NCBI GenBank assembly: GCA_030606335.1
Contig: JAUWGP010000004.1
Span: 10,091-74,090, forward strand
Direction of reading: 5' to 3'
Length of the DNA stretch: 64,000 nt
Source: a candidate division WOR-3 bacterium
GTDB taxonomy: Bacteria > Hydrothermota > UBA3073
Part shown: positions 12,974-42,481 of the stretch, one piece after another
Layout of the letters: each line of letters starts with the position of its first letter
How positions within the stretch are numbered: the stretch's first letter is position 1
The notes under the pieces: model-generated
The model's database searches: none
Told to the model about the DNA's origin: nothing
The model's input: only the letters and a program-made list of their open reading frames with translations
Made by a program: the position numbers and the translations under genes

Positions 12974-13002
12974 TTGACAAAAATAAAAAAAAGTGTTATA
13001 AT
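12974..13002 (+). promoter_or_regulatory. consensus extended -10 promoter TTGACA-17(TGt)-TATAAT upstream of pilB
   Basis: -35 at 12974-12979, TGT at 12994-12996, -10 at 12997-13002, about 70 nt upstream of the pilB ATG. Confidence 0.6.
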
Positions 13003-13070: not shown

Positions 13071-14645
13071 ATGGAAGAAGTAGATACAGAAAAGAAGGAA
13101 AGTAAAAAAGAAATTAGCTCGTTCACTATTGATATATCCGAGATTAAGATTCCTGAGGATCTCTTAAGTCTTATACCTTCAGACTTTGCCAGAGCACGCA
13201 GGTGCTTACCAATTAAAAAAAGAGGTAGGGTACTTAATGTAGTTGTGAATGACCCATCGGATACACTACTTTTAACTGATCTCAGATTCATAACTGGTTA
13301 TGAAATCGAGCCATTTACAGCTAAACAGAAGGATTTTGATGACGCAATTACTCGTTACTATGGTGAGATTGAGAGCATTTCCTCAATTATCAGTGATTTA
13401 ACAAAAACTTCCGAACTCGAGCTTATAGAAACAGATAAAGAAGACCAGGGTGCTGAGGATTTGCTTGTCCTGGCAGAAGAAGCACCGGTTGTCCGATATG
13501 TAAATAGTCTTATCAGAGAGGCAATATTAAAGACTGCAAGTGATATACATATCGAACCCTATGAAAGTTTTATAAGGGCGAGAATTCGTATCGATGGCAA
13601 ACTACTTGAACTTCCTTCACCTCCATGGAGATTAAGGAGAGCTATATCATCAAGAGTTAAAGTGATGGCTAACCTTGACCTTGCCGAACACAGGATTCCA
13701 CAAGATGGTCGTATAATGGTTAAATATCAGGGTAGGACAGTGGATTTAAGGGTATCAACTACTCCTACTATATATGGGGAAAAGGTTGTAATGAGGATAC
13801 TCGATAAGGCAGCAGTTCCCCTTGATATGGAGAGTCTTGGAATGGATGAAACTGCATTGCAGAGATTTAAGGAGACTATAAATCTTCCCTATGGTCTCAT
13901 GCTTGTAACAGGACCAACCGGGTCTGGCAAGACCACAACCCTGTATTCTGCACTCACGCGTATTAATCGTCCAGATATAAACATTATGACAATTGAAGAC
14001 CCAGTGGAATTTGACTTTCCAGGTGTAAATCAGGTAGCCATCAGGGAGAAAATAGGTCTTACATTTGCATATGCATTGAGGTCTTTCCTACGTCAGGACC
14101 CAGATGTGATAATGGTTGGTGAGATAAGAGATAAAGAAACAGCGGATATAGCTATAAAGGCGTCTCTTACCGGTCACCTTGTCTTATCAACACTTCACAC
14201 GAATGACGCACCTTCTGCGATAACCAGATTACAGGATATGGGTCTCGAGTCCTATCTTATCTCTTCTTCTCTGGTTCTTGTCATGGCTCAGAGACTCGTT
14301 AGAAAGATATGTGAAAAGTGTAAAGAGGAAGTTGAGATTTCAATGGATATCATTGATAAAGCAGGAATTGACACATCCCTTTTCAAAAGAAATGTATTCT
14401 ATAAAGGTAAGGGATGTTCTTACTGCAATAATACAGGTTATAAGGGGAGAGAGGGTATATACGAGATAATGTATGTATCCCCTTTAATGAGGGAGATGAT
14501 AGTACAGCGTAAATCTATTGATGAGTTAAGAGAACTGGCGAAAAAAGGAGGTATGATTACACTAAGAGATGCTGCAATAGATAAATTCAAGAACGGTTTG
14601 ACAACACTCGATGAGGTTATTCGAGTAACGAAGGAGATCGAATGA
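13071..14645 (+). CDS. pilB: type IV pilus assembly ATPase PilB (GspE family)
   Basis: Walker A GPTGSGKTTT, DPDVIMVGEIRD, TGHLVLSTLHTN, and tetracysteine motif CEKC...CSYC. The N-terminus has only the alpha/beta half of T2SSE_N. Confidence 0.9.
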   Translation: MEEVDTEKKESKKEISSFTIDISEIKIPEDLLSLIPSDFARARRCLPIKKRGRVLNVVVNDPSDTLLLTDLRFITGYEIEPFTAKQKDFDDAITRYYGEIESISSIISDLTKTSELELIETDKEDQGAEDLLVLAEEAPVVRYVNSLIREAILKTASDIHIEPYESFIRARIRIDGKLLELPSPPWRLRRAISSRVKVMANLDLAEHRIPQDGRIMVKYQGRTVDLRVSTTPTIYGEKVVMRILDKAAVPLDMESLGMDETALQRFKETINLPYGLMLVTGPTGSGKTTTLYSALTRINRPDINIMTIEDPVEFDFPGVNQVAIREKIGLTFAYALRSFLRQDPDVIMVGEIRDKETADIAIKASLTGHLVLSTLHTNDAPSAITRLQDMGLESYLISSSLVLVMAQRLVRKICEKCKEEVEISMDIIDKAGIDTSLFKRNVFYKGKGCSYCNNTGYKGREGIYEIMYVSPLMREMIVQRKSIDELRELAKKGGMITLRDAAIDKFKNGLTTLDEVIRVTKEIE

Positions 14646-15700
14646 TCGACATGGAATTACTACTTGATGAAATGATTATGAAGGAGGCAACGGACCTACA
14701 TATAACCGTTGGGCTTCCAGCACAATTTCGAATTGCTCAAAGGTTAGTAAATTCTGAGTCAGTAGTTCTTACACCGGAGCTTGTAAAGGAACTCACATAT
14801 TCTCTTTTTACTGATGAACAGAGAACGAGATTTGAACATCAAAATGAAATCGATTTTTCATTTGGTAGAGACGGAGAGGCAAGATTCAGGGGAAATGCAT
14901 TTATTGAGAGAGGTAATGTAGCCTGCGCTATAAGATTTCTTCCATCAAGGATACCATCATTCGTGGAGTTGGGTCTACCTGAAATGACGAAGGAGCTTAC
15001 CAGGAAACCTAAAGGGCTCGTGCTCGTTACTGGTGCTACTGGCTCAGGCAAATCTACTACCCTTGCGTCGATGGTTCAGAGAATAAATAACGAGAGGGCG
15101 TGTCACATAATGACAATTGAGGACCCGATTGAGTATGTATTCGAGCATAAAAGGTCTATGGTGCATCAAAGAGAGGTAGGATACGATACAAAATCCTTTG
15201 CGAATGCTCTCAAATACTGCCTTAGAGAAGATCCTGATGTTATATTTGTTGGTGAGATGAGGGATATTGAAACTGTAAGCTTTGCCCTTACAGCTGCAGA
15301 GACAGGACATCTTTTGCTTTCAACTCTTCACACAAATTCAGCTGTGAGCTCAATTGAGAGGATAATAGACGTATTTCCTTCTGCTCAACAGAGACAGGTC
15401 AGGACACAGCTTTCTACTACATTACAGGCAATTTTTGCACAGGCACTCCTACCAGGGAAAAACGGGGGGCTTGTGCTTGCAGTTGAGATACTTATAGCTA
15501 CACCTGCGGTTCGCACAATGATAAGAGAAGGAAGGGAGCATGAGATATACGGCATTATCCAGGCAGGTCAGAAACATTATATGCAGACATTTAATATGAG
15601 TCTTGCCAAGCTTGTCAAAGATGATAGAGTAAGACGTTCTGAGGCATTAAACTATACAACCGACCAACGGGAACTTGAAACAATGCTGGGTAAGGGCTAA
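14642..15700 (+). CDS. pilT: type IV pilus retraction ATPase PilT
   Basis: GATGSGKSTT, DPDVIFVGEMRD, TGHLLLSTLHTNSA, and AIRTMIREG-type motif PAVRTMIREG. 4-nt overlap with pilB. Confidence 0.9.
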   Translation: MIDMELLLDEMIMKEATDLHITVGLPAQFRIAQRLVNSESVVLTPELVKELTYSLFTDEQRTRFEHQNEIDFSFGRDGEARFRGNAFIERGNVACAIRFLPSRIPSFVELGLPEMTKELTRKPKGLVLVTGATGSGKSTTLASMVQRINNERACHIMTIEDPIEYVFEHKRSMVHQREVGYDTKSFANALKYCLREDPDVIFVGEMRDIETVSFALTAAETGHLLLSTLHTNSAVSSIERIIDVFPSAQQRQVRTQLSTTLQAIFAQALLPGKNGGLVLAVEILIATPAVRTMIREGREHEIYGIIQAGQKHYMQTFNMSLAKLVKDDRVRRSEALNYTTDQRELETMLGKG

Positions 15701-15790: not shown

Positions 15791-16837
15791 ATGTTCGAAA
15801 GGATAACTTTAAAAGATATAGCAACATTTACACGACAGTTCGGCGTTATGGTGAAGGCAGGTGTTCCTGTTGTAAGGTGTTTGAAGGGATTAGCAGAGCA
15901 GTTAACAAAGAAGAAGTTTCAGGCAGTTATAACTGGTATTGCGGAGAGTGTTGAGTCGGGATTATCTCTGTATGATGCATTTGGCCAAAAAATAGATGTC
16001 TTCGGACAACTTTATGTGGCGATGGTGAGAGCAGGTGAAGAGGGTGGGTTTTTAGGACAGGGTCTTGAAAATCTTGCCAAATGGTTCGACAAGTCACTTG
16101 CAATACAGCGAAAGATAAAAATGGCTATGGCATATCCAGCGGTTATATTTATCGTTGCAGTAGGTGTATTGATATTTATGCTTACTATGATTATACCAAC
16201 GTTTGCAGGGATGTTTGAACAGCTTGGGGGACAACTTCCTCTTCTGACCAGGGTTGTGGTTGGACTCTCTTCATTCATGAGAAGGTACATATGGCTTGTA
16301 ATATTGATAATAATTGGGCTGGTCTTCTTATTTCGATACCTGTTAAAGAAGGAGAATATCAGGATGGCTGTTGATGCTTTTATATTTAAGATTCCCATTT
16401 TTGGTGAACTTATCAGAAAGACTTCAATATCGAGATTTGCCGTAACAATGAGTTCACTGCTCACAAGTGGAGTTCCAGTAGTTGAATCGCTGGGTATCAC
16501 CGCACAAACATCAGGAAACAAGGTTGTTGAAAAGGCTGTCTTGTTATCTGCAGAGAGGATTGCAGCAGGAGAGAGCATCGTAACACCTTTGAAGGATTGC
16601 GGTGTCTTTCCCCCACTGGTTACTCAGCTTATAGCAACCGGTGAAGAAAGTGGTCAACTGCCTGATATGCTTGAAAATATATCTACGTTTTATGATGAGG
16701 AAGTGGATGCTGCTGTTAGCACACTTACATCCGTTATAGAACCAATAATGATTGTATTTATGGGAGGCTTGGTTGGTGTGATGCTCGTGGCGATGTATCT
16801 GCCAATGTTTGATATTATAGGACAGATGAGCAGATAA
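15791..16837 (+). CDS. pilC: type IV pilus platform protein PilC (T2SS F family), short N-terminus
   Basis: Two T2SSF repeats (FTRQFGVMVKAGVPV... and FAVTMSSLLTSGVPVVESL...) and 3 TM helices. The ORF begins right at the first T2SSF domain, just downstream of a repeat insertion. Confidence 0.85.
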   Translation: MFERITLKDIATFTRQFGVMVKAGVPVVRCLKGLAEQLTKKKFQAVITGIAESVESGLSLYDAFGQKIDVFGQLYVAMVRAGEEGGFLGQGLENLAKWFDKSLAIQRKIKMAMAYPAVIFIVAVGVLIFMLTMIIPTFAGMFEQLGGQLPLLTRVVVGLSSFMRRYIWLVILIIIGLVFLFRYLLKKENIRMAVDAFIFKIPIFGELIRKTSISRFAVTMSSLLTSGVPVVESLGITAQTSGNKVVEKAVLLSAERIAAGESIVTPLKDCGVFPPLVTQLIATGEESGQLPDMLENISTFYDEEVDAAVSTLTSVIEPIMIVFMGGLVGVMLVAMYLPMFDIIGQMSR

Positions 16838-17040: not shown

Positions 17041-17181
17041 GTCTTTGAAATTTTGATATTTAATATTTGATATTTGATTTTACTAAGGGGGGTGGTAATA
17101 GAAAACTACTTGAAAGGGTTGTGCGGGTTTAAAAAACCTGCACTATGTGGTTGTTATTTTATATGAAAGGAGGTGAAAATC

Positions 17182-17589
17182 GTGAGAAACAACAAGGGAT
17201 TTACACTCATAGAGTTGATGATCGTTGTGATCATCCTCGGAGTCCTGGCAGCAATATTGATACCGAGATTTATGGGTGCACAGAATGATGCAAGGATAAA
17301 TGCCGCTGTAGCAGATGTATCACTCGTAAGAGAGGGATTGGGTTTGTACTTTGTATATGAGGGACATTTTCCTGGTGACTGTGACTATCTACCTGATCTT
17401 CGTGATTCAATAGGTCAACATGTCTCCGCGCCTATAGACTCTCAGACATTTAGCGGTCTCACATACGACCAGGTCACTGATTACACATATCATATAGACG
17501 CTAAAGTACTAAAGGTCAAACCAAACCACTATGTCCATGCGAGTGAAGATAGTATTTTTCATAACGAAACTGCAGTTGGTCCCTGGTAA
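17182..17589 (+). CDS. pilA: type IV major pilin (prepilin N-terminal cleavage/methylation domain)
   Basis: NNKGFTLIELMIVVIILGVLAAI. GTG 17182 lies 8 nt after GGAGG. The ORF track start, GTG 17173, overlaps the RBS. Confidence 0.85.
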   Translation: MRNNKGFTLIELMIVVIILGVLAAILIPRFMGAQNDARINAAVADVSLVREGLGLYFVYEGHFPGDCDYLPDLRDSIGQHVSAPIDSQTFSGLTYDQVTDYTYHIDAKVLKVKPNHYVHASEDSIFHNETAVGPW

Positions 17590-17642: not shown

Positions 17643-18374
17643 ATGGTCTTTCTACTATTCATTCTCGGTGCCTGTTTCGGGAGTTTCCTTGGTGTGGTTA
17701 TATATAGACTTCCCAGGAAACTCCCGGCAGGACTCTCCTTCTCTAAGTGTGAGAAATGTGGGAAAAGAATACTCTGGTATGATAATATACCAGTCCTGTC
17801 GTATATTATCCTGAAAGGGAGATGTAGATTCTGTAAAGCTCGTATTCCAATCAGGTATCCACTGATCGAGCTGACTACTGGATTTATATTTGTGTTTACA
17901 TTCTATCAGTTTGGTGTCTGTATCAGGACTCTTTCATTTCTCATTCTCTTTCTTTTTCTATTAGCAATCTCATTCATTGACCTTGATACAAATAGGATAC
18001 CTGATGTACTGACTCTGTCGGGTATGATAATTGGATTTGGGTTGAGCTTCTGGACAATTACCTGGTTTAGGTCAATTATTGGGATTGCAACAGGAATTGG
18101 GCTATTATATATTTTTGCAATTGTTGGGAAGTGGGTACTCAAACAGGATGCAATGGGTGGTGGAGATATCAAACTTCTTGGGATGATAGGCTCATTTCTT
18201 GGTCCGATTGGTGTACTCCTGACCCTGTTTTTTGGGGCAGTAATTGGTTTGGTGGTGAGCGTTCCAATGAAAAGGAGGAAGGTGCCATTTGGACCCTTTC
18301 TCTCAGCAGGTGCATTTATCTACGCCTTCTGGGGAGAAAAGTTAATAAAATTTATATGGAATTTTAATTTTTGA
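17643..18374 (+). CDS. pilD: prepilin peptidase / N-methyltransferase PilD (A24 family)
   Basis: Zn-finger-like CEKCGKRI...CRFC, IPD and GGGDIKLL catalytic Asp motifs, polytopic membrane protein. Confidence 0.9.
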   Translation: MVFLLFILGACFGSFLGVVIYRLPRKLPAGLSFSKCEKCGKRILWYDNIPVLSYIILKGRCRFCKARIPIRYPLIELTTGFIFVFTFYQFGVCIRTLSFLILFLFLLAISFIDLDTNRIPDVLTLSGMIIGFGLSFWTITWFRSIIGIATGIGLLYIFAIVGKWVLKQDAMGGGDIKLLGMIGSFLGPIGVLLTLFFGAVIGLVVSVPMKRRKVPFGPFLSAGAFIYAFWGEKLIKFIWNFNF

Positions 18375-18636: not shown

Positions 18637-19512
18637 ATGCGGACCAATAGAATAAAGGAAATAGATATACAGAAGTATGTGTTGAAAAAGGAGTGGGATA
18701 AAGCAATTGGACTATATAAAGATATAATTGGTGAAGGTGGAGAAAGCGGTGACATATATAACCGGCTCGGTGATATGTACATGAAGAAGGGAGAAAAAAC
18801 TGTTGCTTTAGAAAATTATTTGATATCGATAGAGTTGTATATAAAAGAGGAACTTTATGATAGTGGGACTGCTATATGTAGTAAGATGCTTAGATACGGT
18901 TTAGAAAGACCTGATCTTTATTTCAGGCTGGCACAGTTGAATACAAAACTTAACCTTGCTTTCGAGGCAATAAGATGGTTTAACACGTACTTGAGTAAGG
19001 ATTCAAAACTTATATACCTCAAGAAATATATAAATGAGTACCAGGAGATGATAACGCTACTTGCAGGCCATGACCTCCTTTTAGAAAAGGTAAAGAATAT
19101 TTATATTAAGGCGAATCTCAAGATCGAGGCATTAGATAAACTTTTCAGAATAAATGTAGAGGGTCTTACAGAAGAAGATACTGAATTTATGCTCTCTACA
19201 ATAAGGTCTATCAAGGGATATATTGAAGAAGGAGATACGAGAAATAGGGATGAAGAGATAGAGGTATACAGAAATCTCAAACTCCATAAGCAGGCAATAG
19301 CTGTATTACAGAAACCACTTAGAGACTCACCAAACGATATAGAGAAACTGAAACTCCTGGGTTTGTGTTTTCTTGAGAACCATAAACCACGACTTGCGAT
19401 TAGAATCTTCAATAATTTAATTGAAAAAAAAACGATGTCTAAAGATATAGTTGAAGAGATTAAGATGTATATTAGCCTGGCACAGACAATTAAAAAGTAT
19501 GTTACAGCTTAA
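18637..19512 (+). CDS. TPR-like helical-repeat protein
   Basis: WDKAIGLYKDII...IYNRLGDMYMKKGEKTVALENY and further helical repeats. ATG 18637 (ORF track TTG 18622). Confidence 0.55.
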   Translation: MRTNRIKEIDIQKYVLKKEWDKAIGLYKDIIGEGGESGDIYNRLGDMYMKKGEKTVALENYLISIELYIKEELYDSGTAICSKMLRYGLERPDLYFRLAQLNTKLNLAFEAIRWFNTYLSKDSKLIYLKKYINEYQEMITLLAGHDLLLEKVKNIYIKANLKIEALDKLFRINVEGLTEEDTEFMLSTIRSIKGYIEEGDTRNRDEEIEVYRNLKLHKQAIAVLQKPLRDSPNDIEKLKLLGLCFLENHKPRLAIRIFNNLIEKKTMSKDIVEEIKMYISLAQTIKKYVTA

Positions 19513-19976: not shown

Positions 19977-20396
19977 ATGCTTATAGAAGATGTTCTTAAG
20001 TTAGACATTAGTAGAGATTGTATTGACGAGAAGGAGCCATTTACCCTTGGTGTAGTCTTTATAGAGATGGAATTGCTGGAATATGCCAGGGAAGAACTTA
20101 AAAAGGCAAAGAAGCATACAAAGGCACCAGTAAAGGAGATGGAGATACTCGGTCTTCTATATTTTGATACAGGAGAAGTAGAAAGTGCAATAAAAGAATT
20201 TAAGGAGGCGTTAAAATTGGCTGAAGAGTTTTCTCCAATATCCGTAAGACTATACTATAATCTGGGCATAGCCTACGAGAAGATAAGTCAACTTGAAAAG
20301 GCAATTGAATCTTATGAGAATGCTTATATAAGGGATATATATTACAAGGATATAGAGGAAAAGATAATCCAATTAAGGCAACTGACTCTTGAATAG
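19977..20396 (+). CDS. TPR protein
   Basis: LGLLYFDTGEVESAIKEFKEALKL and YYNLGIAYEKISQLEKAIESYENA. Confidence 0.65.
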   Translation: MLIEDVLKLDISRDCIDEKEPFTLGVVFIEMELLEYAREELKKAKKHTKAPVKEMEILGLLYFDTGEVESAIKEFKEALKLAEEFSPISVRLYYNLGIAYEKISQLEKAIESYENAYIRDIYYKDIEEKIIQLRQLTLE

Positions 20397-20497: not shown

Positions 20498-21733
20498 ATG
20501 ACAGAGGGTATGTGGGATAAGGCAAAGGAGAATGGGATTATATCCGCTTCGCAACTCAAAGAAGCTCTCCAAGTGCAGAGAAATGAGGGTAAGGAGCTCG
20601 AATTCTGTCTTTTTGATATTGGGGCACTTGATGAGGATAAATGGATTGAATTTCTTATAAACAACTACGGCTGTCGCACCATTGACCTTGATAAGATGGA
20701 AATAGATGAGGAAGCAGTCAGAATCATTCCCGCACGTGTTGCGAAATCTTTATTTATAATACCAGTTAGAAAGGCAAGGGATGCAATTGCCATCTCGATG
20801 ATCAATCCTTTAAATCAGAATATACTCAAGTTTATCTCACATATTACAGATTATGAGATTTTACCCTTTGCAAGCAAAAAGAGTCAGATAGAAAAGGCGA
20901 TAGAGGTTTTTTATGCAGGAAGGGGGGAAGGGAAGCTTACTTTTTTCCCGCTTTTAGAGACTATGGAGGGAATTCCATTGGTTGATGAATTTTCTTTTGA
21001 AAAATTCGTAGTCGACCGTGGAAATGAATTCGCATACTCCCTTGCGCTTGCTGTTGCCAAGAGTTATAATGATGAATACAATCCATTCTTCATATGGGGT
21101 GATGTTGGACTTGGAAAAACGCATCTTCTAAATGCAGTTGGAAACTATGTAAAGAATGATTCTACAGAAAGAAGTTTCTGTTATACATCTGCAAAGAAGT
21201 TTGTTAATAGACTTCTTACTGCAATTCAGGAAAATACCCTTAAGGAATTCCAGGATAAATATAGTACAATAGATGTTTTACTTCTTGACGATGTAGAGTT
21301 TCTTATTGGAAGAGAGAGGACACAGGAGGAATTTTTTCATATTTTTGACCTTCTAAGTCACCGTAAGTGTCAGATAGTTTTAACCAGTGATAGACCTCCT
21401 GAAAAATTAACAGAGTTGATGAAGAGACTTACATCAAGATTTGCATCAGGTGTAGTAGTTGAGATAAAGGAGCCTGTTTTCGAGACTAAGATGGCTATTT
21501 TGAAGAAACATGTTGGGGACAAGAAGATTTCAGATGATATTATTGAATATATTGCCAAAGAAGGACCAGGCAGTGTAAGAGGGGTCCTTGGTTTACTTCA
21601 TAAGATTATCTCTCTTGCTGAATACAAGAAAGAAGAAGTGACCCTAACTCTTGCCAAAGAGGCTCTTGATTTGAAAACAGAGGAGGAGGAGCAATTCACT
21701 GTAAAAGATAACATAGAAACAGATAAGGATTAA
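20498..21733 (+). CDS. MshEN/T2SSE_N domain fused to a DnaA-type AAA+ (domain III) module, with no DnaA domain IV
   Basis: N-terminus NGIISASQLKEALQVQ...RIIPARVAKSLFIIPV...AISMINPLNQ. AAA+ region has GDVGLGKTHLLNAVGNYV, VLLLDDVEFL, RTQEEFFHIFDLL, QIVLTSDRPP, RLTSRFASGVVVEI and GSVRGVLGLL. The protein ends with an acidic tail. Confidence 0.75.
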   Translation: MTEGMWDKAKENGIISASQLKEALQVQRNEGKELEFCLFDIGALDEDKWIEFLINNYGCRTIDLDKMEIDEEAVRIIPARVAKSLFIIPVRKARDAIAISMINPLNQNILKFISHITDYEILPFASKKSQIEKAIEVFYAGRGEGKLTFFPLLETMEGIPLVDEFSFEKFVVDRGNEFAYSLALAVAKSYNDEYNPFFIWGDVGLGKTHLLNAVGNYVKNDSTERSFCYTSAKKFVNRLLTAIQENTLKEFQDKYSTIDVLLLDDVEFLIGRERTQEEFFHIFDLLSHRKCQIVLTSDRPPEKLTELMKRLTSRFASGVVVEIKEPVFETKMAILKKHVGDKKISDDIIEYIAKEGPGSVRGVLGLLHKIISLAEYKKEEVTLTLAKEALDLKTEEEEQFTVKDNIETDKD

Positions 21734-21819: not shown

Positions 21820-23412
21820 ATGGAGATAAGTAGGATAAAAGAGGTTTTAGCCAGACCTGTCTTTTATACCGCAGAGAAAATACTTGGACTTGATATTGGT
21901 AGTAGATTTATTAAAGTCGTTCAAGTTCAAAAAACTACCGGGGGATATAGTGTTAAGAAAGTCGGGTTGAAAGAACTTCCTCTCGACGTAATAGTTGATG
22001 GAGAGGTGATGGATGATACTACACTTGTTGATTTAATAAGTTCATTTATCAAGGAATTCCAGGCTGAGGATACTCAAGATAAGGATGTTGCACTGATTAC
22101 ATCAGGTAGGGATGTTCTTATTAAATCAGTAGAGACAGAATTTAAGGAGAGGGAAATAGAAAGAAAGAAAAAGGATATTGCAACAGCCAATATACCTTAT
22201 GATATTGAGGATGTCTGCTATGATACAATGACGTTAAAGGGAAAGCCAAATAGGGTTGTTATAGCAGCAGCCAAGAAAGATAGGATATATTCTATACTTG
22301 GTATAATTCAAGATGTAGATCTCAAGCCAGTAATTATAAGCATGGTTCCAATTGTGCTTGCTAAGCTCTTTCGTATAAACGGACTCATTCCAGATAAGGG
22401 CGACTATTTAATAGTGAGTTTATGCAGTGATAGAACTAATGTCATATCAATTAGAGATGGCGTATTCAATAATTATTTAGATGTAAGGACAGGAGTCGAT
22501 GTTTACTTGAGGAGTATTGCTAAAGAGCAGCAAATACCCGTTGATGAAGCAGTGCCGATTATTCTTGGTGAGGGTACTATAACAGAGAGGGTTGCTAAGA
22601 CATTAAACTATAATAACCGTAGTATTGTGCAGCAGGTCAAGGCTTTTATAAAGGCAGACGGTTTGAAATGTGAAGAGATAATTCTTACAGGTGAGGGTGC
22701 AACTATCCCAGGTTTGAGTGAGTCCATACAAAATGCTACCGAGGTTGTTTGCAAAATAGGTGACCCTTTTGTGGGTATGTCAACTGAAACGACCATTGAA
22801 CTACCCAATAGATACGATATAGCATTCGGTCTTGCTATTCTTGGTCTCAGAAATGAAGGTGTGAATCTTCTTCCAGTTGAAATGAGACCCAGAAAAGAAC
22901 AGAAGTTGGTTTCTCTACTCAAAGGGAGCTTTCCTTTGTGGGCAGGAGGATTAACTTTTCTTGTGCTGGCTCTAATATATATTCTAACAGCAATGAGTGT
23001 GGGTAATTATAGAACTCAAACAAAATCATTAAGGGTTCAGGAAACAACTGTGATGGAGAGAATGGCACTCCTGGATGACCTGAAAAAGAAAAGGCAGGAA
23101 ATTAGAAAGAGAATTCAGATTGTAGAGCAATTAGAAGAAGGAAAATATTCCAGGGTTAAGTTATTAGACGAATTAAACCATATATTACCTCCTTATACAT
23201 GGCTTACGTATCTAAGTGAAGAAGGAGGCGAAAGGAGCTTTGCCGTCTTGATAAAGGGGATAACTGGAAGTAATCTTGGAACATCTGAGTTTCTTAAAAG
23301 ACTCGAGGATTCCCCGCATTTTTCAGGAGTTGAATTGTCTTTTACAAAGACTAGTGAAGCCAGCGGGGTTGAAATTACCGAATTTGAGATAAGAACAATA
23401 TTTAGTGAATAG
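21820..23412 (+). CDS. pilM: PilM-PilN fusion (actin-like ATPase fold + TM + PilN domain)
   Basis: ILGLDIGSRFIKVVQV is PilM-like. VNLLPVEMRPRKE followed by TM helix LWAGGLTFLVLALIYIL and a coiled coil is PilN-like. 530 aa. Confidence 0.8.
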   Translation: MEISRIKEVLARPVFYTAEKILGLDIGSRFIKVVQVQKTTGGYSVKKVGLKELPLDVIVDGEVMDDTTLVDLISSFIKEFQAEDTQDKDVALITSGRDVLIKSVETEFKEREIERKKKDIATANIPYDIEDVCYDTMTLKGKPNRVVIAAAKKDRIYSILGIIQDVDLKPVIISMVPIVLAKLFRINGLIPDKGDYLIVSLCSDRTNVISIRDGVFNNYLDVRTGVDVYLRSIAKEQQIPVDEAVPIILGEGTITERVAKTLNYNNRSIVQQVKAFIKADGLKCEEIILTGEGATIPGLSESIQNATEVVCKIGDPFVGMSTETTIELPNRYDIAFGLAILGLRNEGVNLLPVEMRPRKEQKLVSLLKGSFPLWAGGLTFLVLALIYILTAMSVGNYRTQTKSLRVQETTVMERMALLDDLKKKRQEIRKRIQIVEQLEEGKYSRVKLLDELNHILPPYTWLTYLSEEGGERSFAVLIKGITGSNLGTSEFLKRLEDSPHFSGVELSFTKTSEASGVEITEFEIRTIFSE

Positions 23413-24144: not shown

Positions 24145-24714
24145 TTGGATGTGATGTTGAGAAATAAGATAATAGCCTCCGGTGTAATAGTGGGAATCCT
24201 CTGTCTTATCTTTTTCACCATAATTTATCCGTCAAAACGGAAGACATTTTTGAATCTTAAAGGAGAATATACAGAACTCGATAGAACAATGAGTATAGCA
24301 AGAGAAAATTTGAAACAATACAGCAGGTTAGAGAGAGAGTACGATTCCCTTATTACGACATGGAGGAGGATTGAGCTGCTTCTGCCTGAAGAGAGGGAGA
24401 TACCGAATCTTCTTGAAGATATTGCCAGGGTTGCAAAACGGTGTGGAGTGGTTGTTAGTGAATTCAAACCCCTGGGCCCTATTCCGCATGGTTTCTCTAC
24501 TGAAATCCCTATTAGTTTCAAATTACGCAGTAGTTACCACCAATTCGGAAAATTCCTATCAGAGATTTCGCGGCTTCCAAGATTGCTAAAGGTGGGACAA
24601 TTGAATATAAAACCGTTAAGAGAAAAAGATTCGGAGATAATTACTCTACAGGCAGATTTTATTGTTTCCGCATATACTGTAGCAAAAGAAATTTCGCAAG
24701 CGGGGGGAAAATGA
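24145..24714 (+). CDS. pilO: type IV pilus biogenesis protein PilO
   Basis: N-terminal TM, coiled coil, IPNLLEDIARVAKRCGV and FGKFLSEISRLPRLLKV. TTG 24145 lies 5 nt after AGGAG (alternative ATG 24154). Confidence 0.75.
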   Translation: MDVMLRNKIIASGVIVGILCLIFFTIIYPSKRKTFLNLKGEYTELDRTMSIARENLKQYSRLEREYDSLITTWRRIELLLPEEREIPNLLEDIARVAKRCGVVVSEFKPLGPIPHGFSTEIPISFKLRSSYHQFGKFLSEISRLPRLLKVGQLNIKPLREKDSEIITLQADFIVSAYTVAKEISQAGGK

Positions 24715-25481
24715 ACAAGTTTTTTGGAGCATTAGTATGTTTGTGGCTTTTCCTTCTTAATGGACAAGCATTCCCTGCAACTATAAACGACATAGCTGTT
24801 TCTATAACTGACACGTGCACTGTAATCTCCGTCATTACTGATGCAGCAGCCTACAAGGAGGTGCACGTTCCTCCTCCACCAAGAATTGTTGTAGATTTTT
24901 CTCAATCAGAGTATAGTGCAGATAAACTAAGAATTGATGTCAATAAAGGGAATCTCATAGCTGTTAGGATAGGTCAATACAAACCTGATGTAACAAGAGT
25001 GGTTCTGGATTTAAAAAAAGAAATGGCTTATACTATAAAGAAAACGGATAAAGGCTTTGATATTCTGCTTAAAGCAGGTGTATTACCTGAGGTTGGGAAG
25101 GAAGAGAAAAAGGAAATCGTAGAGCCGGAAGTAATAGAAGAGAAGGAGCAGAAAAAGATTATCGAAAGTCCGCAGGTACCGGAGATCTTTACGTATTCAA
25201 CAAGAGGAAGAAGAGATCCCTTTAAACCACTTGTTGGTTTAGCCTCTGAGGAGGATACACTTCTTGACATAAGGGGTGCGCAGGTTGTAGGAATTGTATG
25301 GAGTCCTCAGGAAAGATATGCCCTTATTCAGGCAGAAGATGGGGAGGTATTCATTGTTGAAGAGGGTGACAGAATAAGAAACGGAAAGGTAAGCAAGGTA
25401 GATAAGAAGAGTGTAGACTTTACTCTTTGGGAACTTGGAAGAACGGAGAGATTAACCCTTAGAATTATAGAAAAGGAGTAG
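24711..25481 (+). CDS. pilP: AMIN domain - K/E linker - PilP-like domain protein
   Basis: Signal peptide. AMIN-like IAVSITDTCTVISVI...PRIVVDF...VRIGQYKPDVTRVVLDL. PilP-like RRDPFKPLV...GIVWSPQERYALIQAEDGEVFIVEEGDRI. Confidence 0.7.
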   Translation: MNKFFGALVCLWLFLLNGQAFPATINDIAVSITDTCTVISVITDAAAYKEVHVPPPPRIVVDFSQSEYSADKLRIDVNKGNLIAVRIGQYKPDVTRVVLDLKKEMAYTIKKTDKGFDILLKAGVLPEVGKEEKKEIVEPEVIEEKEQKKIIESPQVPEIFTYSTRGRRDPFKPLVGLASEEDTLLDIRGAQVVGIVWSPQERYALIQAEDGEVFIVEEGDRIRNGKVSKVDKKSVDFTLWELGRTERLTLRIIEKE

Positions 25482-25483
25482 AA

Positions 25484-26677
25484 ATGAAAAGGTTGGTAGC
25501 TTCTTTACTCCTATCCCTTATCATATCTTTTTCATTGTATGCTGAGAGGGATAGACCCGTAACCCTGAAGTTTAAAAATGCTGATATAAGAACAGTTATA
25601 CAGGCATTTGCAGAGCTTGGTGATGTAAACATTGTAATATCTGAGAATGTAAGAGGAACAATATCCTTGAGTCTGAAAGATGTATCATGGGAAGATGCAT
25701 TCAAAACAGTACTACAGGTTCATGGTCTTGGAGCTGTTGAGCAGGAGGAAATGATTGGTGTAATGACTATGGTTGAGTTTGAAGAAAGAAGAAAGATGGT
25801 GGACCTTGAAACGCATGTCTTCAGGATAAGGTATGCTGATGCACGTGATATAATGGGCGTAGTAAGAGCTATGATGTCTGATAGGGGTGGTATAAATGTT
25901 GATACCAGAACAAACTCGTTAATAGTAACGGATATTCCGAGCAATATACCCAAACTTACAGCCTTGTTAGATACTATTGATAGTCCAACACCACAGGTAA
26001 TGATTCAGGCAAAGATAGTAGAAATTGATTATAAAACAGCGAGGGAGACAGGTATAAGGTGGTTTATAGGAGACCTGGATGATCCAACCAGAGACACCCA
26101 TATGGGAGGGGCATTAGATGCTCGTGGAGAAGCTCCATTTACCTTTACATTTGGGACGTTGCGAGCAGGCATAGATATAGATGCATTCATCGGACTATTA
26201 GAATCGAAGGATCAGGCGAGGATTCTATCAGAACCAAGTATTGCTGTAGCCGATAATGAGGAGGCGATGATTCTCTCTGGGAAAAAGGTTCCAGTAATTA
26301 CATTGGATATGGCAGGAAACAAAATAATTAGATTCTATGATGTGGCTCTCAAGTTTACTGTTAGGCCACATATAAATCCCAATAATGAAATTGTGCTTGA
26401 GCTCCATCCTGAGGTGAGTGACCTTTCAAGTGAGGCAACTGTTGAAGGTGGGATTATAATACTTTCGAACGAAATTAAAACGAAATTGAGAGTCTTAGAT
26501 GGAGAGACAGCAGTAATTGGTGGTGTTATAAGAGAGAGGGAGAGTAAAGTTGAAAAAGGTATTCCATTTTTGTCCAGCATTCCACTTCTTGGGCGTCTCT
26601 TTAAATACAGCAGTATAAGCAAGGACAGGGTCGAAATTATGATATTTGTAACACCCAGGATAATACAAACTCGATAA
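25484..26677 (+). CDS. pilQ: type IV pilus secretin PilQ (short form, no AMIN domain)
   Basis: N0-like VTLKFKNADIRTVIQAFAELGDVNIVIS, NSLIVTD, and secretin core ILSEPSIAVADNEEAMILSG...IPFLSSIPLLGRLFK...EIMIFVTPRI. Confidence 0.85.
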   Translation: MKRLVASLLLSLIISFSLYAERDRPVTLKFKNADIRTVIQAFAELGDVNIVISENVRGTISLSLKDVSWEDAFKTVLQVHGLGAVEQEEMIGVMTMVEFEERRKMVDLETHVFRIRYADARDIMGVVRAMMSDRGGINVDTRTNSLIVTDIPSNIPKLTALLDTIDSPTPQVMIQAKIVEIDYKTARETGIRWFIGDLDDPTRDTHMGGALDARGEAPFTFTFGTLRAGIDIDAFIGLLESKDQARILSEPSIAVADNEEAMILSGKKVPVITLDMAGNKIIRFYDVALKFTVRPHINPNNEIVLELHPEVSDLSSEATVEGGIIILSNEIKTKLRVLDGETAVIGGVIRERESKVEKGIPFLSSIPLLGRLFKYSSISKDRVEIMIFVTPRIIQTR

Positions 26678-28534: not shown

Positions 28535-28617
28535 AAATTTTTGGTTGTATATAACCTTTAATAAAATAATTATACAGTTTGAGATGTGAAAAGTGTAGAT
28601 TCGAAAAGGGAGGAGAA

Positions 28618-28989
28618 ATGGACATAAAGAAAGTGAATGCTGCTTTAAAAATCCTTAAGGATAACCTGGAAGATGCTCTCATTGCAACAGATATATATGG
28701 CTCTATGGATGGTCAATCTATAGCAGGTTATAATTCACAACCTAAGGCTGCAGCACTCTTCAATCGGGTTACAGGATTTCTTGTTGGTTTGTTAGAAGAG
28801 GGTGAGTTTCCAGAAATTGGCAGGTATTACATTTTAGACCTTGTTGATGGAAAAATATTGATAGTCATTCCACTTGGTGAATTTCAGTGGATAGTACTGG
28901 CCGACGGAAAGAAGGTTCAACTTGGACTTCTTTTAAATGTCTTTATACCCAAAATTGTTGATGCCTTTGAAGAAGCGATAGCAAGCTAA
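28618..28989 (+). CDS. Roadblock/LC7 (MglB-like) domain protein, paralog of the C-terminus of the 29238-30923 product
   Basis: LEDALIATDIYGSMDGQSIAGYN...IGRYYILDLVDGKILIVIPLGEFQW...QLGLLLNVFIPKIVDAF aligns residue-by-residue with LGDALITAVIYSSADGKSAASYN...IGRYYIVDLVDEKMLIVIPLGEYQW...QLGLLLNVVVPKIVAAF. ATG 28618 follows GGGAGGAG. Confidence 0.65.
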   Translation: MDIKKVNAALKILKDNLEDALIATDIYGSMDGQSIAGYNSQPKAAALFNRVTGFLVGLLEEGEFPEIGRYYILDLVDGKILIVIPLGEFQWIVLADGKKVQLGLLLNVFIPKIVDAFEEAIAS

Positions 28990-29237: not shown

Positions 29238-30923
29238 ATGGTGAGGATTTTAATAGTTGATGATGATGCTGATTTAGCAGAAATCCTTTCTACAGCATTT
29301 ACCACACAGGGATATGATGTAGATATGGCATTTTCCGGAAAAGAAGGACTTGATAAATTGCTTGAAGAGGATTATGATTGTGTTGTTCTGGATGTGGTTA
29401 TGCCTGAAATGGATGGATTAGAGGTAATGAGGAAGATAAGGGCATCCAGACTCGATGTATGGGTTCCAGTAATATTGATTACAGGTAAAAATGTAATTGA
29501 GGATGAGAGGCGTGTTTTTTCCCTTGGAGCAGTTGATTATATTAAAAAACCATTTGAATTTGATGAACTATTAAAGAGAGTCAATTTGAGTGCGGAGAGA
29601 GGAAAGATATTAAGGAGGTTTCAGGGAAAGAAGAAGTTTTCAGGAAAGATCGATTTATTATTAATTCAACATATAATTGGGTTTATTTCAATAGGACAGC
29701 TTTCAGGTATGCTTCAGGTTACAAATGTGGATATGGAGGGAGTACTGTTTTTTATAAATGGTAATCTTGCAAATATTAGGTTAGAAGAACAAGTAGGAAT
29801 GAAAAATTTCGATGAAATTATGGAATGGAAGGATGGAATTTATTCATTTGTGGAATGGGAAACTGGGTTAGAGATGACCATAGAAACATTAAAGGATATG
29901 TTATTTTTTACAGAACTTGAGGAAGGAAGTTATATTTTGAGATGCGAAAGTGGGGGTAAAAAAGGAGAAATTCATATTAAAGGTGGGAATATTGTTTATG
30001 TAGAGGGTAACGGACTTAGAGGAGAAGATGCTTTGAAAGATATTCTAACATGGAGGAAGGGTACTCTTAATATTGAAAAAACAGATAGACTGAAAAAGGG
30101 GGTGAAACTTAAGAAATCTATTAGTGAAATTTTACTTGAGACATCACGATTTAAGATTAAAGAGAGTAAACCAGAAGAATTGAAAAAAGAGGAAGAGGAG
30201 AAAAAGATTGAAGAGAAGGTAAAAGCTGAGAAAAAGGAAGAGAAAAAAAAGGAGGCGAAGGAGAAGGTGGAAGAGGAGGAAGGGAGAAGAGGGAAGAGAG
30301 AAGAGGGAAGAGAGAAGAAGGTGGAAGAGAAAATAAAAGAGGAGAAAAAGATTGAAGGAAAGAAGGAAGATATAAAGGAGAAGGTAAAAATAGAGGTAAG
30401 GGTAAGAAAGGAGGAAGAAGAGATAAAAGAAGAGGTTAAAGGTAAGGAAAAGGAGGGGATTAAAATGGAGGAGAAGAAAAGAATAGAAGAGGAGGAAGAA
30501 AGAAGAGGGAAGAGAGAAGAGGGAAGAGAGAAGAAGGTGGAAGAAAAGATAAAAATAGATGTAGAAAAATTGAATAGTGTTATCGAGGACATGAAAAAAG
30601 ACCTTGGAGATGCCCTCATTACAGCGGTTATATATAGTTCTGCAGATGGGAAATCTGCAGCAAGTTACAATGAAAAGTCTAAGACATCTGCTATTTTCAA
30701 TCAAGCTACCAGGTATCTTTTTAATGCATTAAAGGATAGTGAATTCTCAAGTATTGGAAGGTATTACATTGTGGATCTTGTGGATGAAAAAATGTTAATA
30801 GTCATACCACTTGGTGAGTATCAATGGGGAATGTTAATAGACCGTGAGAAGGCTCAACTTGGACTTCTTTTAAATGTAGTTGTTCCCAAAATAGTCGCTG
30901 CCTTTAAAGATGCAGTAGCATAA
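29238..30923 (+). CDS. response-regulator receiver - 2 x DUF4388-like - ~140-aa E/K/R-rich segment - Roadblock/LC7-like domain
   Basis: REC: ILIVDDD, VVLDVVMPEMDG, ILITGK, AVDYIKKPF. DUF4388-like: LSGMLQV...GVLFFINGNLANI...EIMEWKDGIYSF and GEIHIKGGNIVYVEG...GEDALKDILTWRKGTLNIE. Followed by a KEEEEKK... tract and a C-terminal Roadblock-like domain. Confidence 0.75.
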   Translation: MVRILIVDDDADLAEILSTAFTTQGYDVDMAFSGKEGLDKLLEEDYDCVVLDVVMPEMDGLEVMRKIRASRLDVWVPVILITGKNVIEDERRVFSLGAVDYIKKPFEFDELLKRVNLSAERGKILRRFQGKKKFSGKIDLLLIQHIIGFISIGQLSGMLQVTNVDMEGVLFFINGNLANIRLEEQVGMKNFDEIMEWKDGIYSFVEWETGLEMTIETLKDMLFFTELEEGSYILRCESGGKKGEIHIKGGNIVYVEGNGLRGEDALKDILTWRKGTLNIEKTDRLKKGVKLKKSISEILLETSRFKIKESKPEELKKEEEEKKIEEKVKAEKKEEKKKEAKEKVEEEEGRRGKREEGREKKVEEKIKEEKKIEGKKEDIKEKVKIEVRVRKEEEEIKEEVKGKEKEGIKMEEKKRIEEEEERRGKREEGREKKVEEKIKIDVEKLNSVIEDMKKDLGDALITAVIYSSADGKSAASYNEKSKTSAIFNQATRYLFNALKDSEFSSIGRYYIVDLVDEKMLIVIPLGEYQWGMLIDREKAQLGLLLNVVVPKIVAAFKDAVA

Positions 30924-41492: not shown

Positions 41493-41828
41493 TTATCTCC
41501 TTACACTCTTTTCGGTTTCGTAGGATGCTACATTCATTGCAATACGTAGAAGGGACATGTTTATTGTAGGATTGTGGAAAACAACGATAAAGAAACTACC
41601 AGCACGTTTCAGAGTAATTTCACCCTTCTCGTAGGATATACGTAGAGTTTTAGGAATGTTATCGTCAGTCCCAAATGCATCGACCATTTGAGAAATTTCC
41701 ATTGAGATGTTGCGAAGCACCTTACCATCCGGAGTTCCGTGTCCAGCCTGAATACCCTCAGTAAAACCAAATATATAGCACCCTGTAACTTCGGGAATTG
41801 ACAATATTTTATCAACAATTTTATCCAT
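41493..41828 (-). CDS. Roadblock/LC7 (MglB-like) domain protein
   Basis: ILSIPEVTGCYIFGFTEGIQAGHG...ISYEKGEITLKRAGSFFIVVFHNPTINMSLLRIAM. Confidence 0.6.
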   Translation of the reverse strand: MDKIVDKILSIPEVTGCYIFGFTEGIQAGHGTPDGKVLRNISMEISQMVDAFGTDDNIPKTLRISYEKGEITLKRAGSFFIVVFHNPTINMSLLRIAMNVASYETEKSVRR

Positions 41829-41845
41829 AGTAACACCTATTGTAG

Positions 41846-42481
41846 TTAAGTTATCTCTTTTTCAATCTTAGTTTTTACATTATCCATTATAGCTGTGGGT
41901 TTTATCCATGCAATAAGATAGCCACTTCCAAGTTTATAGACAAAGCAGTTTTTCTTATCTCCTTGCATCTGTATGTATCTAAATTCACTCAGTTCCATTT
42001 CTTTTGATATTATCTCCGCCTTTGTACATATGGTTGCAAGGTAATTTTTCTTACCAATTTGTGATCCAACCCAGAGGTCGTTTGGAGATAGTGTAGCTAC
42101 ATTATCAATACCATCTATTACCTTTAAGCGTTCTTTCACAGTATTAAGTATTGCATCATCTTCGCCACCCTCAATTTTTTTAAGCGCCTCTTTTAGGAGT
42201 TCATTTGTATTTTTTACAATAGTAACCTTTGGAAGTTCCACATCAGTATCTATGTCGGTTTCAATTTTGAATGTGCCCTCCTTCCACTTTAATAGTTGAA
42301 TGAAGGCTTCCTCGGCAATGAGTGGACCTACAGAAGCATGGACAATATTCCCCTCATGGAAGAAGATCATACCCTCGAGTGAACCGTACTTCGTGGTAAT
42401 TCTACAGGTTCTTCCCTTGCTACTGTATATCTGGATAAGGTCGCCGATTTCAATATCTTTTAAACTACCTTCAAGAGCCAT
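41846..42481 (-). CDS. DUF4388-like domain protein with Roadblock-like C-terminal half
   Basis: GSLKDIEIGDLIQIYSSKGRTCRITTKYGSLEGMIFFHEGNIVHAS...AEEAFIQLLKWKEGTFKIE, then IDGIDNVATLSPNDLWVGS...CFVYKLGSGYLIAWIKP. Confidence 0.6.
   Translation of the reverse strand: MALEGSLKDIEIGDLIQIYSSKGRTCRITTKYGSLEGMIFFHEGNIVHASVGPLIAEEAFIQLLKWKEGTFKIETDIDTDVELPKVTIVKNTNELLKEALKKIEGGEDDAILNTVKERLKVIDGIDNVATLSPNDLWVGSQIGKKNYLATICTKAEIISKEMELSEFRYIQMQGDKKNCFVYKLGSGYLIAWIKPTAIMDNVKTKIEKEIT

Follow-up and report, generated by a model that had tools for sequence, protein, structure and literature searches.

Domain III of DnaA is considered an AAA+ module specific to replication, and its known relatives without domain IV, Hda and HdaA, also act on replication and have a short N-terminus with a beta-clamp-binding motif. 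The ATPases PilB, MshE, PilF and GspE/XpsE carry on their T2SSE/PilB hexameric ATPase an N-domain (MshEN) with a two-subdomain fold, i.e., a four-helix bundle and an alpha/beta subdomain. In a 64,000-nucleotide stretch of contig JAUWGP010000004.1 from a candidate division WOR-3 bacterium (assembly GCA_030606335.1; this whole stretch is referred to as the window), we found a gene inside a type IV pilus cluster whose product, the MshEN-DnaA-III fusion protein, joins an MshEN domain to a complete DnaA domain III (Table 1).

The complete domain III is common to the fusion protein and DnaA (TIGR00362; PDB 8bv3, 8btg, 2z4r, 1l8q, 3r8f). The fusion protein, however, lacks domains I and II and the helix-turn-helix of domain IV and therefore cannot read DnaA boxes, and its gene lies in a pilus operon, whereas dnaA lies beside dnaN and oriC. 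Like Hda and HdaA, it is a DnaA-family AAA+ protein without domain IV but with an arginine finger; unlike them, it has no replication context and carries a 145-residue MshEN domain instead of a clamp-binding N-terminus, and the two share only 18–19% identity. Its N-domain has the fold of those of PilB, MshE, PilF and GspE/XpsE but sits on a DnaA-type AAA+ module, and its motifs for binding cyclic di-GMP (c-di-GMP) are degenerate. Cytoplasmic accessories such as PilZ-FimX of Xanthomonas and Pseudomonas, and TPR/polarity regulators such as SgmX with MglA of Myxococcus, act on the N-domain or the localization of the extension motor, and the tetratricopeptide repeat (TPR) and PATAN/receiver genes in the window's own cluster recall such PilB cofactors. 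None of the PilB cofactors in a 2024 review has an AAA+ or DnaA-like module, and the terms DnaA and AAA+ are absent from it (PMC11656802). The paper that described MshEN lists, in its main text and supplementary architecture table, fusions with REC, HD-GYP, CheA, CheX, cyclase, kinase and AAA_31, and no DnaA fusion (PMC5013675). Our full-text literature searches found no description of an MshEN/T2SSE_N-DnaA fusion or of a DnaA-like protein tied to pilB or type IV pili, and for DnaA paralogues or proteins lacking domain IV they found only work on Hda and HdaB; NCBIfam has no dedicated model for the family. The remark of the first-pass annotation, made from the DNA letters alone, that no pilus component of this architecture had been described thus agrees with the literature searched. 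While the domains are known, their architecture, the family and its association with pili appear to be new.

Domain architecture and type of the AAA+ module

The fusion gene starts with ATG, 7 nt 5' of which is an AGGAAG ribosome-binding site, and stops with TAA (21731-21733). Pfam matched MshEN PF05157 at residues 57-143 (44.4 bits, E 1.7e-11) and Bac_DnaA PF00308 at residues 163-321 (189 bits, E 8.8e-56; profile positions 3-161 of 162), and found no match in the protein to Bac_DnaA_C PF08299, the pattern that the first-pass annotation had predicted. The hexameric ATPase domain T2SSE PF00437 had no match either, and the PilB-like part of the protein is confined to its N-terminal 142 residues. 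The AlphaFold 2 (AF2) model, built with a 36-sequence alignment, had a mean predicted local distance difference test (pLDDT) score of 88.7 and contained two folded domains with a disordered segment (residues 143-156) between them. The protein is confirmed to consist of an MshEN/GspE-N1 domain, a disordered linker and a complete DnaA domain III, without domains I, II and IV. It ends in the acidic tail that had been annotated, whose sequence is not kept in relatives, but 50 rather than ~40 amino acids (aa) past the sensor II arginine.

The AAA+ core is, as had been proposed, of the DnaA type rather than that of Hda, IstB or DnaC. The DnaA equivalog model TIGR00362 matched residues 157-404 on profile positions 100-350 of 437 with 275.1 bits (cut-off 343.9), compared to 97.1 bits for Hda (TIGR03420, cut-off 194.8), 56 for IstB and 24 for DnaC. 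The DnaC/IstB helicase loaders belong to the same initiator AAA+ clade and likewise join an AAA+ core to a separate N-terminal targeting domain, but their similarity to the fusion protein is weak (35–56 bits for IstB and 24 bits for DnaC vs. 189–275 bits for DnaA models). The best match among PDB sequences was domain III of Bacillus subtilis DnaA (8bv3, 193 bits), with Hda entries at ~40 bits, and in Foldseek residues 160-392 superposed on B. subtilis DnaA-III with a template modelling (TM) score TMt of 0.91 and a root-mean-square deviation of 2.1 Å, as against a TM of ~0.65 for Hda. Domain III of the window protein is 39–49% identical to canonical DnaA domain III, and 39–45% identical to that of the DnaA structures. 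In the AF2 model (strand 227-231, helices 232-244 and 248-255, strand 260-264), residues 232-255 form an initiator-type two-helix insertion, so that the predicted structure has, between strand 2 and the Walker B strand, the extra helices that distinguish the initiator clade (DnaA/DnaC/Orc/Cdc6).

All the DnaA-III motifs named in the first-pass annotation (Walker A GDVGLGKTHL, Walker B VLLLDDVEFL, RTQEEFFHIF, sensor I LTSDRPP, box VII RLTSRFASG and sensor II SVRGV) were found and are conserved in relatives. The functional sites comprise Walker A (G201-T208), Walker B (D264 and D265), sensor I (T296-R299), box VII with the arginine finger (R310 and R314) and sensor II (R361). The roles of the Walker, sensor and arginine-finger residues of DnaA are well established. 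Among 98 MshEN-fused modules, the Walker A lysine is kept in 98, the Walker B aspartates in 98 and 97, and the sensor II arginine (R361 of the window protein) in all 98, while the equivalents of E. coli R285, the arginine finger, and R281 are kept in 90 and 86, respectively (E. coli numbers are from alignment to MG1655 DnaA). Because the catalytic and arginine-finger residues are kept, the module is predicted to bind and hydrolyze ATP and to make head-to-tail contacts of the DnaA type.

Domain IV is absent and not hidden by a frameshift, in line with the first reading of the sequence. In addition to the missing PF08299 match, no domain IV remnant was found between the stop of the fusion gene and the start of pilMN at 21820, where all three frames are closed, and tblastn with 22 domain IV queries over the 64-kb window returned only noise (best E 0.057). 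The cumulative GC skew of the window showed no sustained reversal of the origin/terminus kind.

In place of domains I and II stands the MshEN/T2SSE_N domain that had been recognized in the sequence, as the PF05157 match and the Foldseek matches to MshE and PilF attest. NCBIfam matched residues 10-142 to the N-terminus of type IV-A PilB, and among PDB sequences residues 1-145 were closest to Myxococcus xanthus PilB (65 bits), with Thermus thermophilus PilF, Geobacter PilB and Vibrio cholerae MshE matched as well. The modelled N-domain was matched by Foldseek to the GSPIIA domain of PilF (9g1w, TM 0.82) and to MshE (5htl, E 3.5e-11), with TM scores ranging from 0.67 to 0.82 for MshE/PilF, and the whole N-domain superposes on PilB-N of Xanthomonas citri in its PilZ complex (7lko). 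Its MshEN_C subdomain was matched to XpsE-N (TM 0.72), EpsE-N1 in the EpsE:EpsL complex (2bh1_X, TMt 0.70) and GspE in GspE:GspL (4pht). On the model and the PF05157 score (44 bits), the predicted domain has the two-subdomain MshEN fold.

Family, conserved linkage to pilus genes and related proteins

The fusion gene is not the one-off for which it was first taken; its family is large. By word-indexed search and exhaustive HMMER search over 1.84 billion representatives, the architecture was found well outside the close WOR-3 relatives, and the 297 proteins collected were sorted with our own hidden Markov models of the N-domain, domain III and domain IV. Among them, 89 had MshEN with one DnaA-III and 5 had MshEN with two; other architectures were tandem DnaA-III (148), DnaA-III only (33) and canonical proteins with domains III and IV (21). 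The MshEN-DnaA-III family thus has at least 94 representative clusters, with domain IV in 0 of 94, and Pfam reproduced the architecture in ten distant representatives. Some of the MshEN-III-III proteins are giants of ~1,900–2,000 aa. The linker between MshEN and DnaA-III varies from 3 to 779 aa; when long, it is enriched in Glu, Ala and Ser, with amphipathic segments that recur along it. In four Hydrogenedentota proteins (P0143, P0148, P0187 and P0239), whose linkers are 270–780 aa long, these are ~30-residue amphipathic repeats such as '..EFA..IRESV.GA.QEA...I..'. Such repeats may serve as a series of binding sites and not simply as spacers.

The carriers that could be named belong to WOR-3, Candidatus Hydrothermota and Candidatus Hydrogenedens, and the window protein is 97% identical to one from "candidate division WOR-3 bacterium." Among species-representative genomes, those nearest to the window are WOR-3 isolate RS_17_14 and a MAG of Candidatus Stahlbacteria. 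A genome scan with a long-linker N-domain identified 121 species-level genomes, nearly all Hydrogenedentota. The family is phylum-wide in Hydrogenedentota and is also found in WOR-3 and Hydrothermota. A profile search with an 18-member family alignment added few named taxa, and it was swamped by tandem DnaA-III proteins because those score twice.

At JGI/IMG, "chromosomal replication initiator protein DnaA" is the name given to many tandem proteins and to P0004, P0121, P0125, P0134, P0140 and P0187, while at NCBI the proteins without domain IV are named "DnaA/Hda family protein" or "ATP-binding protein." Mislabelling as DnaA can mislead origin prediction and inflate dnaA counts in metagenome-assembled genomes (MAGs). 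Organism labels also call for care: locus L141, labelled Candidatus Bathyarchaeia, and many "uncultured Nitrospirales/Nitrospiraceae" loci (in L101-L180) carry the [MshEN-DnaA-III]-pilB-pilT unit of the Hydrogenedentota type, with 50–76% identity to Hydrogenedens proteins, and these labels are probably binning or labelling errors.

Type IV pilus genes were found beside the family gene in all eight lineages checked individually, where it is linked in an operon with pilB or pilMN. In the window, the fusion gene has the co-directional position reported in the first-pass annotation, between a TPR gene 5' and the fused pilM-pilN 3', and the loci of WOR-3 orthologues are colinear with it. In P0240 and P0167, which are 32–35% identical, the gene occupies the same slot (TPR-[gene]-pilMN-x-pilO-AMIN/pilP-pilQ-minor pilins) as in the window. 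The P0061 and P0125 genes lie between pilQ-...-pilB-pilC-pilT on the 5' side and a TPR gene on the 3' side; in the lineages of P0122 and P0137, three DnaA-III paralogs and an MshEN-only protein of 436 aa are encoded between pilD and pilB; and the gene of Hydrogenedens P0143 (913 aa) lies directly 5' of pilB. Overall, a TPR gene adjoins the family gene in 6 of 7 short-linker lineages examined. Among 80 Hydrogenedentota loci, an MshEN-DnaA-III open reading frame (ORF) was found in 71, with pilB directly 3' on the same strand in all 67 that could be evaluated and pilT after pilB in 53 of 61. As a control, 80 loci were retrieved with generic DnaA peptides, among the matches listed, and at the 76 with canonical dnaA no pil gene was found within 10 kb (0/76). 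The exceptions in the control set all lacked domain IV: two TPR-DnaA-III giants of Sumerlaeota and one Endomicrobia protein by a PilT-like ATPase. Neither dnaA nor dnaN was ever beside the family gene in the loci examined. The synteny with pil genes that the gene-neighborhood check was to look for is therefore present in eight lineages and 67/67 Hydrogenedentota loci, vs. 0/76 dnaA controls.

Two loci (L087:4309-15923 and L088:5619-17217) have four adjacent paralogs beside pilB, i.e., an MshEN-III-III protein of ~980 aa, the 436-aa MshEN-only protein, an MshEN-III protein of ~400 aa and an MshEN-III-(1,280 aa)-III protein of ~1,990 aa, followed by a TonB_C protein, pilB, pilT, pilC and pilS/pilR.

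Other proteins with DnaA-III but no domain IV came out of the same searches. Tandem DnaA-III proteins of ~640 aa, of which 148 clusters were collected, are exemplified by two of Gemmatimonadota (L005:10001-11914 and L181:10001-11959), both in a chemosensory cluster with the order CheW-CheY-CheA-CheC-TPR-PATAN-...-[tandem]-PATAN/TPR-CheR-CheD-CheB-CheW; in L005, genes for Roadblock Robl_LC7 (MglB-like) and Arf-family (MglA-like) proteins lie directly 5'. In a neighbor-joining tree of 198 domain III segments (100 bootstraps), support was confined to either half of the tandem proteins (77–85% bootstrap each), and the monophyly of each half implies an old duplication. TPR-DnaA-III fusions of 530 to 2,150 aa combine long TPR arrays with a C-terminal DnaA-III that is 45–49% identical to that of the window protein, without domain IV (L006:5642-10897 and L014:6647-10741 of Candidatus Sumerlaeota; P0154, P0174, P0246, P0138, P0166 and P0218). 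An 806-aa protein (L095:10001-12421, ENA contig k141_203906) has an N-terminal DnaA-III fused to a PilB3_N-T2SSE pilus ATPase, with two T2SSF (pilC-like) genes 3' and Pilin_N and DUF7289 genes 5'. Pilin_N, DUF7289, deoxyhypusine synthase and pyruvoyl arginine decarboxylase nearby suggest that this locus is archaeal; to our knowledge, archaea have no DnaA. In an Endomicrobia MAG (L022:9470-11350), a 627-aa protein with a central DnaA-III and without MshEN or domain IV lies by a PilT-like T2SSE ATPase. DnaA-III is repeatedly joined to TPR proteins, PATAN regulators and pilus motor ATPases, and the window holds all three partner types. A large clade of DnaA-III modules would accordingly have moved into motility machinery, where they are fused to the docking domain of pilus motors, to TPR arrays or to PilB, or are duplicated in chemosensory/MglA/PATAN clusters.

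Proposed role and its alternatives

Homology and gene context give somewhat better than even odds, in our judgement, that the fusion protein docks on the platform of the pilus motor and serves there as an accessory, ATP-dependent switch or scaffold. The MshEN domain would be the anchor, as PilB/GspE motors use the same module to dock on the PilM/GspL platform and to bind partners such as PilZ. An anchor is proposed because the N-domain superposes on EpsE-N1 (2bh1), GspE (4pht) and PilB-N (7lko), and because the contacts between PilB N1D and PilM have been inferred from type II secretion structures, as reviewed in 2024 (PMC11656802). With this anchor, the AAA+ module would sit on PilM-PilN or PilB, where the pilus machine faces the cytoplasm, and the neighboring TPR proteins probably take part in docking, perhaps as docking partners. 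ATP-bound DnaA-III protomers would assemble head to tail via the arginine finger into an open oligomer, hydrolysis would take the oligomer apart, and this assembly cycle may license, cluster, time or gate the engagement of the PilB extension motor. Consistent with a pilus role are the fusions that join the same partners (TPR-DnaA-III, and DnaA-III-PilB3_N-T2SSE in a pilus locus). For the type IV pilus field, the family is a candidate for a conserved, so far unlisted partner of PilB/PilM, and the proposed mechanism, ATP-dependent oligomerization on a flexible-linker tether, is testable.

Several observations weigh against the switch or scaffold proposal. The match of the C-subdomain to EpsE-N1/GspE is statistically weak (E 0.35–0.5, probability 0.82–0.91), and any of PilM, PilB, the TPR proteins and the cluster's stand-alone MshEN protein could be the docking partner. 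In Hydrogenedentota, where the upstream gene is variable, TPR neighbors were looked for and none was found; the TPR partnership is therefore lineage-specific. The arginine finger is absent in ~8% of the family modules (P0167, P0240 and a 398-aa paralog at L087), so that head-to-tail hydrolysis is not universal. Lastly, the clade of 87 of the 88 MshEN-fused modules to the exclusion of all canonical DnaA in the neighbor-joining tree had 2% support, the backbone of that tree being unresolved.

Since the motifs for c-di-GMP binding are degenerate in this WOR-3 protein, its switch is probably not under c-di-GMP control. The first-pass annotation had raised a c-di-GMP link, in which binding of c-di-GMP by the MshEN domain would be signalled to the AAA+ module and so make pilus assembly depend on levels of the second messenger. 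The fold does match c-di-GMP-bound MshE (5htl) and the GSPII domains of PilF. The c-di-GMP motif of MshEN, however, consists of two tandem 24-residue sequences ([RKPN]hGxxhhxx[GAS]hhxxxxhxxxhxx[QNKRYWST]) ~5 residues apart, in which Arg-hydrophobic-Gly cradles the guanine (PMC5013675), and a search with the relaxed pattern found no match in either half of the window protein or of eight close relatives. In the window protein, motif I has 8 of the 11 constrained positions and starts with GMW, and motif II has 9 of 11 and starts with ELE, where R-h-G is required; in close WOR-3 relatives, motif I starts with G/N-M/I-W (GMW or NIW) and motif II with ELE. XpsE lost c-di-GMP binding through changes that include R38G and G40L, i.e., at the same positions (PMC5013675). 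The NCBIfam model of the motif, NF053729, scored 30.1 for the window protein, under its cut-off of 38. Of the 94 family proteins, 64 lack any strict motif, 29 carry a single one and only P0121 carries both; motif I of P0137 has 11 of 11 constrained positions. Given these sequences, a c-di-GMP receptor is an improbable explanation, and c-di-GMP sensing, unlikely for the window protein, is possible for relatives with intact motifs.

Another explanation is that the tethered module keeps the nucleic-acid or DnaA-directed activity of DnaA, as an ATP-dependent filament at the pilus machine that binds single-stranded DNA (ssDNA) or co-assembles with DnaA. Such roles, which we regard as improbable, would need the RERTQ segment and the arginine finger, and both are kept in the window protein. 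If true, an ssDNA filament would couple pilus retraction to DNA uptake, and co-assembly with DnaA would couple the surface or pilus state to replication initiation. For DNA handling at the pilus base, a tethered DnaA-III filament would bind ssDNA, for example in type IV pilus-dependent DNA uptake. RERTQ aligns with E. coli K243-Q247, and the residue next to the V211 position is hydrophobic; these positions are implicated in ssDNA contact by DnaA. The title of PDB entry 3r8f has DnaA domain III binding ssDNA as an ATP-dependent helical filament. Against these points, the motif has drifted in the family: of 98 modules, 73 have Ala as the S/T246 equivalent and 43 have Glu as that of R245. The competence genes comEC, dprA and comEA were seen in none of the annotated loci; the related modules in che/Mgl/PATAN clusters also argue for signalling over DNA transactions. 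DNA handling is thus very unlikely.

Equally remote is coupling to replication, which the first-pass annotation had suggested as a link to the replication or cell-cycle state and for which we found no evidence. As an Hda-like protein or filament cap, the fusion protein would co-oligomerize with the cell's DnaA-ATP and link initiation to the pilus or surface state. With 39–49% identity to canonical domain III, and with arginine finger and sensor II in place, its domain III would plausibly hetero-oligomerize with DnaA on steric grounds. It does not, however, have an Hda-type clamp-binding N-terminus, because that part of the protein is the MshEN domain, and it scored half of the Hda cut-off (97 vs. 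194.8). Moreover, in the loci examined the gene is always by pil genes and never by dnaA/dnaN, related modules without domain IV lie in chemosensory/MglA clusters, and one is fused to PilB in the archaeal-looking locus; contexts and fusions (TPR, PilB, che/MglA/PATAN) point to motility machinery. An artefact, be it a truncation or frameshift of dnaA, an assembly chimera or pseudogene decay, which the "chromosomal replication initiator protein DnaA" labels given to relatives by JGI pipelines might suggest, has a negligible chance and is effectively refuted by the recurrence of the identical architecture across independent NCBI, ENA, JGI and Logan assemblies, the catalytic residues kept down to 32% identity, the lack of a domain IV remnant in any frame and the confident AF2 model.

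Pilus cluster of the window

Pfam analysis of the neighbors placed the fusion gene inside a co-directional type IVa pilus cluster with the order pilB, pilT, pilC, pilin, pilD, 296-aa TPR, stand-alone MshEN, 139-aa TPR, fusion gene, pilM-pilN, lipoprotein, pilO, AMIN-pilP, pilQ, minor pilins, receiver-PATAN (DUF4388) and PilY1 (Table 1). A consensus scan of the + strand found no intergenic terminator-like site from the candidate promoter 5' of pilB through 31500.

Table 1. Positions of the fusion gene, its domains and other features of the pilus cluster in the window.
Feature	Position	Strand	Details and evidence
MshEN-DnaA-III fusion gene	20498..21733 (stop included)	+	411 aa; ORF, Pfam, NCBIfam, AF2
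Four-helix MshEN_N-like subdomain, degenerate c-di-GMP motifs	20498..20668 (residues 1-57)	+	helices 5-11, 17-30, 34-40, 46-57
MshEN_C/T2SSE_N (GspE N1-type) alpha/beta subdomain	20666..20926 (residues 57-143)	+	PF05157, Foldseek
Linker, first part disordered	20924..20983 (residues 143-162)	+	pLDDT <50 at residues 143-156
DnaA domain IIIa AAA+ base	20984..21460 (residues 163-321)	+	PF00308, PDB 8bv3, Foldseek, site tables
DnaA domain IIIb lid with sensor II R361	21461..21673 (residues 322-392)	+	TIGR00362 alignment
End of last helix and acidic tail	21674..21730 (residues 393-411)	+	pLDDT <50 from residue 399
Candidate operon promoter, sigma-70-type	12974..13002	+	5' of pilB; consensus 12/12 positions with TG; consensus match only
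pilB extension ATPase	13071..14645	+	T2SSE 469 bits; MshEN at residues 20-101
pilT	14642-15700	+	Pfam T2SSE
pilC	15791-16837	+	Pfam T2SSF
Major pilin	17173-17589	+	Pfam N_methyl
Prepilin peptidase pilD	17643-18374	+	Pfam A24_N_bact, Peptidase_A24
TPR protein, 296 aa	18622..19512	+	weak TPR matches; ortholog in same slot at locus L002
Stand-alone complete MshEN protein, ~147 aa	19499..19942	+	PF05157 35 bits; type_IV_pilB N-terminus 51 bits
TPR protein, 139 aa, directly 5' of fusion gene	19977..20396	+	TPR_2, TPR_1, TPR_8
Fused pilM-pilN, GspL-like, 530 aa, directly 3' of fusion gene	21820..23412	+	PilM_2 89 bits, PilN 52 bits
pilO	24145-24714	+	Pfam
AMIN-pilP	24711-25481	+	Pfam
Secretin pilQ	25484-26677	+	Pfam
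Receiver and PATAN (DUF4388) protein, distal end of pilus cluster	29238..30923	+	Response_reg 103 bits, DUF4388 51 bits

The PilB of the window has only the MshEN_C subdomain, without the four-helix MshEN_N, and its residues 19-98 align to residues 61-140 of the fusion protein. In the window cluster, a complete MshEN domain is found only in the fusion protein and the stand-alone MshEN protein, the latter being 23% identical to the N-domain of the former (E 6e-12). The longest ORF of the stand-alone gene starts from TTG at 19451, while its ortholog at L002 has 146 aa; the c-di-GMP motifs of this protein, which is encoded between two TPR genes, are degenerate too. The pilM-pilN fusion is common to the WOR-3, P0240 and P0167 lineages.

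The receiver-PATAN protein has a repetitive, Lys/Glu-rich middle region, and its C-terminal domain of ~120 aa is clearly homologous to a 136-aa ORF just upstream (28579-28989); neither matches Pfam. A second DUF4388 protein (41846-42481, - strand) adjoins a 111-aa ORF (41493-41828, - strand).

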